64,000 nt of DNA from Escherichia coli (GTDB lineage Bacteria > Pseudomonadota > Gammaproteobacteria > Enterobacterales > Enterobacteriaceae): the NCBI RefSeq assembly GCF_965641715.1, contig NZ_OZ282453.1, one strand, 5' to 3'. The first letter of the stretch is position 1. Every line of letters begins with the position of its first letter. Made by a program: the position numbers. Below, piece after piece: positions 27,001-33,000 of the stretch.

Positions 27001-30000
27001 ACATCAACTATCGCCACGGATAAAAACGCATACACCGCTGGCGAGACTATAACCGTCGCCGTGACGCTGAAAGATGCGCACGGTAACCTGGTTGAAGGGG
27101 GCGAGTCCTTACTGTCTGGTGATAACGTAACAGTGGAAGGAGCCGTACGTTCAGGAGAGTGGTCTGAAACTGCCGGTGTTTATACTGCTACATGGTCGGC
27201 GCAAATGGAGGGAGACTCTCACCACGCGACGCTGACGTTACCCGAGTGGGGCAGCAGTAAACAATCAGAGAGTTATTCCATCCACAGTGGTGCTCCGGTG
27301 CAGGCAAATTCTGCTATCAGGACAGATAAATCGGCATATATCGCCGGGGAGCCATTAACCGTCACAATAACGTTGCGGGATGAGTTTGGTAACCCTGCTT
27401 TAGGGCTGACATCAGAAGTCATCGAGTCTTATATCGATAGTTTCGCGGTAGGTGGCGCAACTCCCGATTCTATGCAGTGGGTCGAGCAGAATAATGGTGA
27501 ATATACCATTGTCTGGACAGCATGGGTTGCCGAGGAAAATCTGGTTGCCAGTCTGAAATTAAAAACATGGGCAACGGAGATTAAGTCCTCATTATACGGA
27601 ATACAACCAGGTGCGGCGGCACAAACTCAATCCACGATTGTCACGGACAAAACGAAATATATCGCTGGGGATAGCATAACGGTGACCGTTGTTCTTAAAG
27701 ATGCCCAGGGTAACTTTATTACTGATGGTGTCGCGCAGCTTAATGAGGAAAACGTACAAGTCAGGAACGCTGATTCTATTCAAGGCAATAATTGGGTTTA
27801 CAACGGCGATGGTAAATATCAAAGACAGTATATGGCGCATTTTGCGGAAGCGAACTTGAATGCGCAACTGAAGATGGCTGGTTGGAGCGATGCCAATTAT
27901 TCAAAAAACTACACTATTAACAGAGGTGAAGTAAGTATGCTTCGTTCACAGCTTCGTATACGCGAAGTTTTAGTGGTAGCTGGGGCGGATATACCTGTTA
28001 GTGTTTTATTATCTGATGAATTTGGTAATCCTGTGAATGACGGTCTGGATTTGCTGACAGATGATGCAGTGTACTTACAAAATGTGGAAAAGAAACATTG
28101 GTCCAGTTGGACATTTGTAGGTGATGGCAGATATGAGCGTACCTATATGGCTTACAAAGAAGGAGAAAACTTAAACTCTTATCTACATATTAATGGTTGG
28201 TATGTAGGCGGGCAACCGTCTTATACCATCCTTCCTTTTGTGGAAGTCGAGTCGCTTAGTGTCAATGGTGCAAAATTCAGGGCGGCAGATGGTTTTCCCA
28301 AAACAGGGTTTGATGGTGCTAAATTTACACTGATATTAACCCACAATATGAAAAACACGGATTATAATTGGACCAGTGGCATACAGGGTATTCAGGTCGA
28401 TAGTAATGGTATGGTGACTTTAGAATTCATTATCAATAAAGAGGTTACTATTACAGGAACGCCGAAAAGCAATAAAGGGAATAAAGTTACATATAAATTC
28501 TCACTGCAGAAATGGTTTATACCTCAAGGGATAATTCAGGAATCATGGAGTGAGATGAATTCATATTGTATTGGTAATGGTTATATATTACCGTCTAGTA
28601 CGGATTTAGTTGGAAGTTCAACTAGCGGTGCTGTCCCGCGAAAAGTAGGTTCGTTATGGGGTGAATATGGTAATCTGACTTCGTATGACGGAATATTTCG
28701 CGCTGAACATTATTGGCTCGACAGCGGTATGATATTTTATCCAGGAGATGGTCATCTCTCGATTGCGCCACGTTCATCCCCACTGTGTATGAAAACGTTC
28801 TGATATTATTTATGTTATTGCCCTGCATCAGCAGGGCAATTTATCTTCGCTCTTACGCAGAACTCCGCATCACACCAATAGTATTAAATTCATTTTTCAC
28901 ACTGAGCAAACGGGGGTCATGAAGCAACACATTTGACCATAAATCACTCTCTTTAATTAATTGTTGCCAGCGCTTTTCATATTCTTTTTTACCATAAACA
29001 GTGTAAATTAACGGCAAAATAACACCATTGATTTTGTTGGTGTTAATATTTGCCAGTAACTTCATAATGTCATTTTTTATAGATGCGCCATAGATCAGAA
29101 ACTTCGTATAAAGCGAGTTAACGCAGGTGTAATCAAGACCATGTTCAGGTTCAAGTTTAAGCAATAAACTTTTGGCTTTGTCATTATGTCCTTTCAGTGC
29201 CATGAACATAGCCAGAATAGATGTAATAATTGGATTGTTACAGGTGTTTTGACTGTTAAGATTTAATGCAAAAGATATCGCGTTATCGAGTGGTGATGTA
29301 TAATAAAGTATAATTAATTTAAGAATGCTTATGCCCATTTTATTGGGTTCAAGAGCAATGCTTTTTTCTATTAAATTAAATGCTCTTGCAAGGTCGCCGT
29401 TCAAAAAATATAGCAGCGACTGATAATAATAAACGTCTGGCGAATTAGGTTTGAGTAAATGTGCTTGTTTAAATAGCACATTAGACACTGAATGTTCATC
29501 TTTTAGCCCACTGATTAAACCCAGTAAACCCAATGCCTGAGAATTTGAAGGGTTAATTTCCAGAGCCTTTTCAATGGAGGTTACTGCCGTAGTTATTGCT
29601 TGTTTTTGTTCACTGATTCCAAGGAGTGCTAATGATATATGGCATTCCGCCAGGCAACAGTAGGGCAAGGTATTTTGCGGTTGCGTACTCACACAATCTC
29701 TAAATATTACTAATGCTCGTTTCAAACTTTCTGGTGTATAACGGTACATTTCCATCCTGCCATTCATATACATAACAGCAGAATCCAGAGATGGCATTTG
29801 TTGTGTATTAATGGATTTAAAATTAATGTTGGGTATTTTTTCAATAAGAATATTAATTACTTGTGATAATAGCACGGAAAGAGGATTGTCGGGGTTGAAA
29901 TCAATACTTTGATGATCAATCAATTTATGCGTTCTGGCATGGATTAATTCAATAAATAAACGCCAGTTTTTACCATAGTGAACGACCTGACCCATAATAT

Positions 30001-33000
30001 AATATTCTGGGCCTGTTTTATTGATAAACTGATGGATAGTGGAGAAATCACTGGCTTCATTCGTTACCGAAGCGGGTAAAATATCTAAACCACAAAAAGC
30101 ATATTTTGAAAGGCCCTGGACCAGTTCGTAATGGAGTTTTAGAACATTGATCGAACCTTCAGTACGAAAGGGAAAAACGGCAAGAGTGGTGGTCGACTTT
30201 ACCGGTTCATTATCGGTTACAATCACAATGGGGACAGTAAAACGGTATCCACGACCATAGACCGTTTCGATATACTTACACTGTTTATTCTCATGCAAAA
30301 GTTTACGTAATGCATAAATACACCGTGTTAAAGATTCATCGCTGGCAACACTCGCGCTCCAGACCTTATCGATAATCTCTTCTTTACTAACAATTTCACC
30401 GTCAGCATTAAGTAATAGAATGATAACGCCAAGTTCTTTCGGGGGAATATGATATTCTTTGTTTTTGAATAATAATATTCCATTGTTTTTTAATACAAAG
30501 TCACCAAATATATATTGTTGTGTATTATTTTTTCCATGTTGCAGTTGCATAGAACGCTCCTTCCATTTTCTCTATTCATAGTATTAATTTGATCTGTCTA
30601 AAATAAAGTATTGGCAGAATTGCTCTATCAAAAAACGCTCATTTTGTGAGATTGTGATGAAGAAATGAATGAAAGCTGATGCTTAATAATATGAAACACT
30701 GGTCCCATTTTACGGGACCAGATAGTGGACGATAATTGTAGGTGTTACTTAATCAGAAACGTAAATAATCTTTCGCTGAATCAAACAACGCAGTAATGGT
30801 TGAAGATAATAATTTTATAATTGTATCGTAGGTGGAGTTGGCTGTACTGTATTTAGTCGTTATAACCTGCACGTCGGTTTTCATGTTTTCTGCCTGGCCA
30901 TTATAACCCGCCAACCATGCCTGGTATTCAGCCGTGCTTATTTCGTAGCCGGTGAATTCTTTAGATATATTTTTTTCCTTCCCTTTATCATCCCTGTGAA
31001 CCATTGAGTCTGAAGACTGGCTCATACTGTCAATAATCTGAGGGTTGGGAATAATAACATACAGACCGCTACCTTGCGGTTCAACTTCGACTATAGGAGA
31101 AGGTGTGCGGTGTTTTGGGTCGGGTGGAATAACCGGAAGTCCTAAAGCGGCGCACCATTTTTCTGCTTCTTCCAGTGGAACACCAATTTTGTCAGCAGGT
31201 GCCGGAGGGTATAAAACATAGTCTGGATTGTAATGATAATGAAAATCACCATTAGGATATTTATCGATATAATAAAAATGCATCAAGGCTTTTTGGAATG
31301 CATTGACATCAAAAACTATCGCATCGCCTTTTTTATTAGAGTGAGTCCATTTTCCCATATTGCTTTGGATATGTTCACTGAAGTCCTGCCAGTATGCGCT
31401 CATTATCTCAACGCTATTTGCATAGATTTCGAGGTAGTCACTACCGAGCACACTCATCAAATCAGCAATATCACTACATATATATTTATCACTTTTAAAT
31501 TCGCTTGAACTACTGGCCGTTAAAGTACTGCTGGTTGCTGAACTTCTCATTTCAGGCGCAAAACTATCTAAAGAAGCGATAACGTGAGTTAAGGTTCCTT
31601 TGGTCGTTGCCATTGCACCTGGCCCGGTTGTGTTGTGAGCAACGTTAGCCAGGGTTTTTCTCACAGCGTTATGCAGGGTCAATATTTTAGCGGGATCCTT
31701 TAATTTTCCGTCAATAGTATTAACATTTTCTGTAAGCTGCAGAACGTTTTTTATCAGCAAATAACTTTCGTGTAAGAGCGAAGATCCTTTCTCTGACAGG
31801 TTCTCAGTTGGGAAATTTCTGAGCATGTTTTTAACGAAGTTAAGTTGTATGTCGTGCTGGCATTTCCATTCTTCATTTCGCGGGCTACGTTCACTGACCA
31901 AAGTTGATAGTTTCTCAACATCTTTCTTGAGCATAGCGCCAATATTATTATCCTTACTGGCGCTGTTATGCAAATTTCCCTCGCTTTTGCTGTTTACCAG
32001 TTGATGAGGCTCCTCACTTTGCGAGGATGCCTCTTTGAGAGGAATGTTTGCATTCTGCTGACGTAGAATATCTATATTTAAATTATTATCTTTATTAATC
32101 ATGAGTCATTCCTCCTTAAATATAATTAACTATTATTGCAATTATTTATGAGCGAATGCCTTGAACGATAGCGCTATCAGTATCAATAATTGTTTGTATT
32201 ATTTGCTGTAATAAATTGAGTGCCTGATCTCTTCCTTGAACATCACGATTAATTTGATCCAGATAGCTACTCATAACTGAATGCATGACATTTTTAGCCT
32301 GTTCAACAATGTCTTTTTCTGCATGAGTAGTGCTTTCTAGAAATCTAGATGTTGCTCGAATTGATTCATTGCTAAGCTGTGAAAGTACATCTGCTTTACC
32401 TATAGTAAAATATTTATTATACCTATTGTTATGTTTTGTACTAATTTTCTCGTTTGTATCTCTAATCTTTTCTAGAGTAGTTTCTTTTTCTTTATCATAA
32501 GATTTCAGCGCCTCTTCTTTTTGTTCTTCATTAAGACTCGTATCTTTCGTTGTATTTTTTATTTTTTCATCTATTTGTTTGAGAGAAGCTTGTTGCTCTC
32601 GAACTTCCCTTTTTGACGCGCGCTGTACATCATCATCAGTTCTATTGATAGTATGCTCTTGGTCAGGTGTAAGGGTTACCATCTTTTCGGGATGGCTTCT
32701 GTAATTTGCTACGACAGATGCCGCGGCCCCGGCTGCGCCAACTCCTGACCCGATAATAACACCTACCGAACTTGCTGCTGTGGCGCGTTCGGTTTCTTTT
32801 CTCTGATACTGGACAAGTTGTTCAAAAACATTACTCATAATAGCCTCAGACATAGCAGAGGCTTTATACATTGATGTGAATACCCTTAAAAATTCCTCCA
32901 TTACAACCTGTTGTCGCATGGTCAAATTATCTAGCATATCAAGGATATTAAATTTAGATATTTTAATGGTGGTCTGTTCTGTAGAACAGCTTGATTGACT

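Follow-up and report, generated by a model that had tools for sequence, protein, structure and literature searches.

The window analysed here is a 64,000-nucleotide (64-kb) stretch of Escherichia coli DNA (contig NZ_OZ282453.1, assembly GCF_965641715.1) that carries the known eip (selC-B) island, between nepI/yicM and yicS-nlpA near selC. In this island eilA, which encodes a HilA-like regulator, follows the eicA-eipBCD operon for a type III secretion chaperone, translocon and needle-tip protein on the same strand, and lies tail-to-tail with the gene of a large adhesin. The features of the two junctions suggest that eilA is probably a transcription unit of its own, and that the operon and the regulator would be coupled mainly through a shared activator site, with a convergent terminator at the 3' end. 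An activator-dependent promoter of ancestral origin, belonging to eilA itself, appears most likely, because the gap between eipD and eilA holds a conserved hairpin (hairpin 2) and a promoter module whose box is shared with hilA-like genes that have no operon in front of them. The arrangement of the genes is that of the eip/eilA/air island and already known; what may be new is only the box before the regulator gene, a modest lead. The elements of the eipD-eilA junction are the following.

30753..32102, minus strand: eipD, 449 amino acids, needle-tip protein of the SipD/IpaD family, encoded by the final gene of the translocon operon
30699..30721, minus strand: hairpin 2, CUGGUCCCG-UAAAA-UGGGACCAG and then UGUUUCAUAUU; the left arm is also given as CTGGTCCCG
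30626..30642, minus strand: T-run box, ATGAGCGTTTTTTGATA, 17 nt, a putative activator site over the eilA -35 region
30600..30605, minus strand: putative -10 hexamer TATTTT, exactly 20 nt past the box
30557..30564, minus strand: ribosome-binding site GGAAGGAG, separated by 6 nt from the ATG of eilA, read from the sequence and kept in E. albertii (alignment A4)
28853..30550, minus strand: eilA, 565 amino acids, HilA/EilA-family transcriptional regulator

The original prediction for this stretch had placed eilA at the end of the translocon operon and had proposed that read-through from the translocon promoter could autoregulate it. The order of the genes, their strands and the distances on which it relied were borne out to the base by the open reading frame (ORF) map and the sequence, with 202 bp (30551..30752) separating eipD from eilA on the same strand and 49 bp (28804..28852) separating the convergent adhesin and eilA genes. 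However, the view that it implied, of eilA as a member of a single translocon operon, found no support, since the hairpin at 30699..30721 and the box/-10 module at 30600..30642 lie between the two genes.

Hairpin 2, which had gone unmentioned in that prediction, is located inside the 202-bp gap, 31 nt past the eipD stop codon. The terminator scan gave it a stem of 10 pairs, 6 of them G-C; its folding energy was -16.3 kcal/mol (z = -3.2), and none of 200 shuffled sequences was as stable. The hairpin is kept in six E. coli loci, where the one C-to-U change in the stem still pairs, as G-U (alignment A2). Its counterpart in E. albertii occupies the same position with a different sequence, CCUGGUC..GACCAGG followed by the U-tract AUUUUUAUUU, and in the divergent eip2 cluster (L007) an unrelated GGGCCC..GGGCCC hairpin comes directly after the tip gene. 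Thus, in three diverged versions of the island the tip gene and the regulator gene are separated by a GC-rich hairpin. These data make hairpin 2, of which no description was found in the literature searched, a putative terminator or attenuator of the eicA-eipBCD transcript. As the overall counts of the promoter and terminator scans were near the shuffle expectation, our argument leans on folding z-scores and conservation. Two other candidates in the gap were rejected: a 26-amino-acid ORF (30628..30708, minus strand), which starts inside hairpin 2 and whose ATG is absent in E. albertii, and a weak CUCA..UGAG stem followed by U6, considered as a separate terminator, which turned out to be the box itself (fold z = 0.4).

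The eilA box begins 92 nt before the ATG, counted from the box start (30642..30626), and 56 nt beyond hairpin 2. From the putative -10 hexamer the eilA transcript is predicted to start near 30593, with a leader of about 43 nt. A comparison of upstream regions recovered the 17-mer ATGAGCG(W)(W)TTTTGATA before both eilA and eicA, the eicA box lying 5.3 kb upstream of the eilA box; this second copy putatively marks the operon promoter. The 19-nt pattern AAATGAGCGWWTTTTGATA has two perfect copies in the window, those of eilA and eicA, and one copy with two mismatches, against a chance expectation of 0.11 at up to three mismatches; 0 of 100 shuffles reached three hits. When the gap was aligned between E. 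coli and E. albertii (A4), the hairpin stem, the box, TTATTTTA and the ribosome-binding site were kept while the rest diverged. The second box and the operon genes that follow it are located as follows.

35898..35914, minus strand: second box copy, ATGAGCGAATTTTGATA, 61 nt before the eicA ATG (78 nt from the box start)
35339..35836, minus strand: eicA, SicA/IpgC-class (SicA/LcrH-class) translocator chaperone, first gene of the operon
33310..35091, minus strand: eipB, SipB-like translocon subunit
32146..33297, minus strand: eipC, SipC-like translocon subunit

A scan of the loci that we fetched located the box before eilA and eicA in E. albertii (L006), before the chaperone genes of eip2 and of an atypical Salmonella type III secretion system (L015/L016), and before the hilA-like genes of Yersinia enterocolitica (L008), E. 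fergusonii (L009) and two further loci, L011 and L012. It also precedes putative effector genes in L008 (position 19628), L009 (17828) and L011 (5502). The regulator genes of L008, L009, L011 and L012 are followed by an iagB-like gene and adjoined by a prgH operon, and are not preceded by a translocon operon. Each of the six eilA/hilA-like upstream regions that bear the box has a TAnnnT hexamer exactly 20 nt past it (TATAAT in L012), so that the layout is box, 20 nt, TAnnnT, 49-67 nt and ATG. The prgH upstream regions of L008, L009, L011, L012 and L017 have no box, nor was any box-like sequence found upstream of Salmonella hilA or prgH. The adhesin gene of the window has no box upstream either, and would therefore be under different control.

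Insertion sequences (IS) have struck this region in nature. In strain ETEC4071 (NZ_CP122673.1, L019, 2700..3520) an IS1 element lies inside the eilA box, flanked by the 9-bp target duplication CGTTTTTTG, and cuts ATGAG off from the remainder of the box; other strains carry IS1 or IS903B insertions within eilA. A third box-like site was also noticed in the window, ATGAGCTATTTTTGATA, with one mismatch, at 39886..39902 on the plus strand, in non-coding DNA between setC and the rhuM fragment/tRNA-Sec. It has no ORF after it and no TAnnnT at +20, and is present as well in YZMc3-1 (L001, 31385..31401); it may be the orphan promoter of a lost effector gene of the selC-A region.

In the scheme of the original prediction, which we consider unlikely, eilA would be the distal cistron of the translocon operon, read-through from the eicA promoter would autoregulate it positively, and convergent interference would act across the 49 bp. 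The shared strand of eipD and eilA and the short gap between them speak for this scheme, and several observations weigh against a separate eilA unit. The tail of hairpin 2 in E. coli, UGUUUCAU, is a weak to moderate U-tract, with 5 U in 8, so leakage is plausible and substantial read-through possible; any read-through would be self-reinforcing, as EilA is reported to activate the eip genes (PMC4210603 and PMC11068852). At its threshold, a generic scan for sigma-70 promoters detected none on the minus strand of the 202-bp gap, a result that fits an activator-dependent promoter yet is no positive evidence for one. The hairpin between eilA and the adhesin gene lacks, in the window allele, a U-tract on the eilA side, and neither the eip2 regulator nor Chromobacterium cilA has the box upstream. 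On the other side, a conserved hairpin directly follows the tip gene in three diverged islands, with a strong U-tract in E. albertii, and the promoter module of the gap also serves hilA-like genes without an upstream operon. Furthermore, the region upstream of eilA behaves as an independent promoter, since a green fluorescent protein reporter with 500 bp of it was active by itself (PMC7058095). Hairpin 2, the box module and this reporter together argue against read-through from the translocon promoter as the main mechanism, and for an eilA unit with its own promoter.

Regarding the protein that might bind the box, published sites of two AraC activators from Inv-Mxi-Spa type III systems, both of which act with a chaperone, are informative. 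The InvF site is ANNGGNCNTTTTTTNAANGTT (PMC8490769) and overlaps the -35 region (PMC7595419); the MxiE box, GTATCGTTTTTTTAnAG, does so too (PMC9769918). The consensus of the box described here is ATGAGCGWWTTTTGATA, with the core CGTTTTTTGA-AG. As in InvF/SicA- and MxiE/IpgC-dependent promoters, a single T-run box with a similar core lies at -35, before a chaperone operon and effector-like genes. In 6 of 6 regulators the spacing between the box and the putative -10 hexamer is constant, and the published sites overlap the -35 region as well. Its targets likewise follow the InvF/MxiE pattern: chaperone operons and effector-like genes have the box and prgH apparatus operons do not, which indicates an InvF-class rather than a HilA-class set of targets. 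This pattern is a stronger argument for an InvF/MxiE-type box than the match to the published strings. The most likely candidate for the binder would be EivF, the InvF homologue encoded by ETT2 (the second type III secretion system of E. coli; PMC7058095, PMC11068852), as the InvF/MxiE-class AraC activator of this system, acting with the chaperone EicA.

Counting against EivF/EicA, the box consensus agrees with the published InvF and MxiE strings at only 11/15 and 12/16 specified positions; these are the scores of the eilA box, and the eicA box reaches only 8/15 and 9/16. Such matches are not significant alone, as the window contains 23 (InvF) and 6 (MxiE) hits at up to four mismatches. In addition, other ETT2 regulators (EtrA, YgeK, YgeH or EilA itself) could bind the box. 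The sequence …ATTGGGCGTTTTTTGAATGTT…, which we take to be that of the Salmonella sicA promoter, agrees with the published matrix; it did not turn up in a text search. None of the papers in the literature searched, which did not include Sheikh 2006, ties eivF or the box to the eilA promoter.

Sites of OmpR/ToxR-type regulators, the class to which HilA belongs, are direct repeats. This bears on a further possibility, that the box is EilA's own site and that EilA directly activates both the eicA operon and eilA without any InvF-class activator. The eip genes are EilA-dependent in strain 042 (PMC4210603 and PMC11068852), the box stands before eilA/hilA-like genes in six loci, and sequence alone cannot name the binder, all of which would suit EilA. 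Nevertheless, EilA can replace HilA at Salmonella invF (PMC4210603) and should therefore recognise HilA-type sites, yet no box-like sequence occurs at the HilA-dependent prgH of Salmonella or at prgH of L008, L009, L011 and L012. A single T-run box over the -35 region is moreover the architecture reported for InvF and MxiE (PMC7595419, PMC9769918), and the box also precedes chaperone and effector-like genes, the classic InvF/MxiE regulon. Direct control by EilA thus appears quite improbable, and EivF with EicA is retained as the favoured candidate.

Taken together, the following sequence of events can be proposed, in which we infer termination at either hairpin, the use of the promoter, which protein binds the box and whether the feedback is positive or negative. 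The eicA-eipBCD transcript would meet the conserved hairpin 2 after eipD and would end or be attenuated there. Transcription of eilA would start from a compact promoter made up of the box over the -35 region, a 20-nt spacer, TATTTT, a leader of about 43 nt and a strong ribosome-binding site, and the same activator would drive the eicA operon and eilA through the shared box. Leakage through hairpin 2 would at most make a small contribution, and the eilA and adhesin transcripts would converge on the hairpin between them and be kept apart by it. EilA is reported to activate eipB/C/D, eicA, eaeX, eivF and eivA (Sheikh 2006, as cited in PMC4210603, PMC7058095 and PMC11068852). Because eivF is among these genes, a feedback loop would close, running from EilA to eivF, and from EivF/EicA back to eilA and eicA-eipBCD.

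More tentatively, and with somewhat less than an even chance of being right, this idea can be extended to one SPI-1-like clade (after Salmonella pathogenicity island 1) comprising eilA of E. coli and E. albertii together with the hilA-like genes found in Yersinia, in E. fergusonii and at related loci. In this clade an InvF/MxiE-class box would form part of the core promoter of the master regulator, so that the bottom-tier, secretion-sensing EivF, with free EicA, would feed back on the top tier; the eip island would have retained only this core promoter, butted against the terminator of the translocon operon. In the literature searched, no feedback of this type was found described for Salmonella hilA, nor a copy of the box before the HilA-class master regulator for either Salmonella or Shigella.

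The other junction, between the stop codons of the adhesin gene and eilA, contains a second hairpin.

18268..28803, plus strand: adhesin gene iatC / air / eaeX, 3511 amino acids in the ORF listing, inverse autotransporter, convergent with eilA
28817..28840, both strands: hairpin 1, ATTGCCCTGC-ATCA-GCAGGGCAAT, 10-bp stem (6 G-C) and 4-nt loop, terminator-like

Hairpin 1 begins 13 nt past the adhesin stop codon and finishes 12 nt short of that of eilA. It folded at -17.6 kcal/mol (z = -4.6) as read on the plus strand and at -18.7 kcal/mol (z = -5.5) as read on the minus strand, with 0 of 200 shuffles as stable, and its stem is invariant in six E. coli loci even though the neighbouring 3' end of the adhesin gene has strongly diverged (alignment A1). 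The hairpin that had been predicted to be shared tail-to-tail is thus real, as judged by its folding z-scores and the conservation of its stem. On the plus strand the 10 pairs (6 G-C) are followed by the tail UUAUCUUCGC, giving the stem and U-tract of an intrinsic terminator. On the minus strand, that of eilA, the same stem is followed by AACAUAAAUAAU, in which the window allele has no U-tract; the U-rich tail UUUAUCUU is thus on the adhesin (+) side only. The majority allele is a symmetric AAA-stem-UUU of -21 kcal/mol on both strands and has the features of a terminator in both directions. E. albertii retains the stem, with a different loop and a U-tract on the eilA side, and its convergent gap is also 49 bp.

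Hairpin 1 is therefore plausibly a conserved, shared terminator, and is predicted to be an ordinary overlapping, bidirectional terminator of convergent genes. As a single stem-loop lies between the two stop codons, the eilA and adhesin transcripts would both end within this element of about 24 nt. Terminators of this kind have been reported for hundreds of E. coli genes (bioRxiv 10.1101/2022.10.23.513370). The one stem-loop between stop codons 49 bp apart resembles those described by Ju et al. 2019 and Wang et al. (the same preprint), from which it differs in the asymmetric flanks of the window allele. A similar structure is present in Salmonella SPI-1, where one hairpin, with a folding energy between -17 and -20 kcal/mol, occupies the 53-bp convergent gap of iagB/sptP. 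When 28000..37000 was scanned with Rfam (E <= 1), neither the 49-bp nor the 202-bp gap matched a known RNA family. The missing U-tract speaks for the interference between eilA and the adhesin gene that formed part of the original prediction, as eilA transcripts might run antisense into the adhesin 3' end; however, a shared convergent hairpin normally prevents interference rather than causing it (bioRxiv 10.1101/2022.10.23.513370).

The last ~80 residues of the adhesin exist as two alleles with about one-third identity, compared with about 90% further upstream (28560..28816 versus L002 2740..3000), and that of the window is the rarer one. In megablast, the homology shared with most E. coli genomes begins precisely at the left edge of hairpin 1, 28817, and because identity returns to high values at precisely this point, the hairpin marks a recombination boundary. 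This coincidence of edges would also suit another explanation, in which the hairpins are leftovers of recombination or 3'-end RNA-stability elements and the transcript ends are set by Rho or H-NS. The U-tracts are imperfect, and the region has a G+C content of 35-41%, typical of H-NS-bound DNA where Rho termination is common. Nonetheless, the stems are conserved, or swapped in place for other GC-rich stems, while loops and flanks vary; in addition, the majority allele of hairpin 1 is a canonical symmetric A-tract/stem/U-tract, and the U-tract of hairpin 2 in E. albertii is canonical. We therefore regard this explanation as very unlikely, and termination at the two hairpins as the better reading.

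The anatomy of the island, its conservation, the family memberships of its products and its synteny were observed directly. EilA scored 952.4 bits against NF009037 (HilA/EilA family; cut-off 589), over residues 1-552, where Salmonella HilA scores 1120.9 bits. Pfam placed Trans_reg_C at residues 31-104 (59.7 bits, cut-off 26.2), an OmpR/ToxR-type winged helix, and TPR_17 and TPR_2 C-terminal to it at residues 327-403. The protein is 99% identical to the RefSeq EilA cluster and equal in length to EilA of strain 042, 565 amino acids (PMC4210603). EipD passed the cut-off of PF06511 (117.5 bits, cut-off 25) and matched TIGR02553 with 134.5 bits (E = 5.6e-39), under the equivalog cut-off of 219. EipB matched PF16535 (SipB) and NF011901. 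For EipC the family searches gave no match, its position and annotation being in agreement with the published locus. EicA scored 113 bits against TIGR02552 (cut-off 104.8), also matched the Pfam family TPR_3, and reached 150.8 bits against NF011859 (SicA), under the cut-off of 184. The adhesin comprises IAT_beta, about 20 Big_1, 23 Invasin_D3 and one Invasin_D4 domains, and its homologue is named inverse autotransporter adhesin IatC in RefSeq.

The eip or selC-B island was first described in enteroaggregative strain 042, with eicA, eipB, eipC, eipD, eilA and eaeX/air between yicM and nlpA (PMC7058095, PMC11068852, PMC4210603); these articles credit its description to Ren 2004 and Sheikh 2006. 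The window has the same genes, order, strands and site as that island (Ren 2004, Sheikh 2006, Fox 2020), with no difference in structure apart from its minority allele of the adhesin 3' end. It is flanked by nepI (yicM) on one side and by yicS, nlpA, yicL, setC and tRNA-Sec on the other. By megablast, 730 of 5426 complete E. coli genomes contain a 3.7-kb core that is 94-100% identical and constant in layout, and RefSeq labels the genes of the matching genomes eilA, iatC and IpaD/SipD family tip protein. Among the 731 matching records there is one plasmid, and one genome has the region twice. E. albertii carries the same island at the same site, with an EilA that is 76% identical.

Salmonella contigs read prgH (leftward), hilD, hilA and iagB (rightward), then sptP, sicP, sipA and sipD (leftward), so hilA stands apart from the sip genes as a separate unit, as had been stated in the original prediction. 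The regulators of both systems are homologous, each scoring above the NF009037 cut-off, as are the chaperone, translocon and tip genes, and EilA complements a Salmonella hilA mutant (PMC4210603). In both cases, moreover, the regulator unit ends at a hairpin shared with a convergent neighbour, iagB/sptP in Salmonella. The differences concern what surrounds the regulator gene: Salmonella hilA is on the strand opposite to sipD, with sipA, iacP, sicP, sptP and iagB intervening; it is preceded by hilD and a 1.1-kb regulatory region, whereas this long upstream region has been lost in the eip island, which also lacks iagB, sipA and sptP; and, unlike eilA, it has no box-like sequence upstream. In Salmonella, hilA was not among the direct targets of InvF in chromatin immunoprecipitation sequencing and RNA-seq (PMC5013294).

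In Shigella, virB is located downstream of the ipa operon, on the same strand but under a promoter of its own. This placement of a second-tier regulator gene downstream of a translocon operon makes ipa-virB a closer functional analogy than Salmonella, although VirB is ParB-like and not HilA-like. There, MxiE, a third-tier AraC activator, and the translocator chaperone IpgC are reported to feed back negatively on the virB promoter, without making use of a consensus MxiE box (bioRxiv 10.1101/2022.04.20.488988). At eilA, activation is the more likely sign of the feedback, because the box is a good, promoter-proximal copy.

Some additional observations on the island and its relatives deserve mention. 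The G+C content differs sharply inside the island, from 56-63% in the immunoglobulin-like repeat core of the adhesin (21000..27000) to 35-41% over eilA and the eip genes (28000..36000), and this contrast suggests that the adhesin repeats and the secretion-related genes differ in origin or constraint. In the 250-nt spacer between eicA and eipB, RefSeq annotates a hypothetical ORF of 60 amino acids (35147..35329, minus strand); as it matches no family and is missing from both E. albertii and eip2, it is unlikely to be a gene. The length of this long chaperone-to-translocon spacer is kept in both E. albertii and eip2. The eip2 cluster itself (Logan ERR3329175 contig 19, 3690..10692) is a divergent eip-type cluster from an assembly labelled E. 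coli. Its regulator is 57% identical to EilA, and its genes are ordered chaperone, SipB-like, SipC-like, tip and regulator, with IS remnants on both sides; its inverse-autotransporter adhesin gene lies upstream on the same strand, in contrast to the tail-to-tail arrangement of the window. A chaperone-alignment scan of genome contigs returned only two loci, of which one is an E. coli contig that had been mis-binned and the other a distant relative. A contig labelled 'MAG: Collinsella sp.' (JAIJJM010000039.1, L013) carries an E. coli eip island with 99% protein identity and both boxes, and is almost certainly a binning contaminant.

In summary, the two junctions of eilA appear to be built of standard parts: a terminator behind the operon, a promoter that is compact and activator-dependent, and a convergent terminator shared by two genes. 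The natural IS insertions in the box of strain ETEC4071 and in eilA of other strains represent ready mutants for the function of the box and of eilA. If the box is a site for EivF/EicA, the free chaperone would couple the expression of the ETT2 master regulator to the activity of secretion; if true, this would provide a testable handle on when the cryptic ETT2/eip system of sequence type 69 (ST69) and enteroaggregative E. coli (EAEC) strains switches on.

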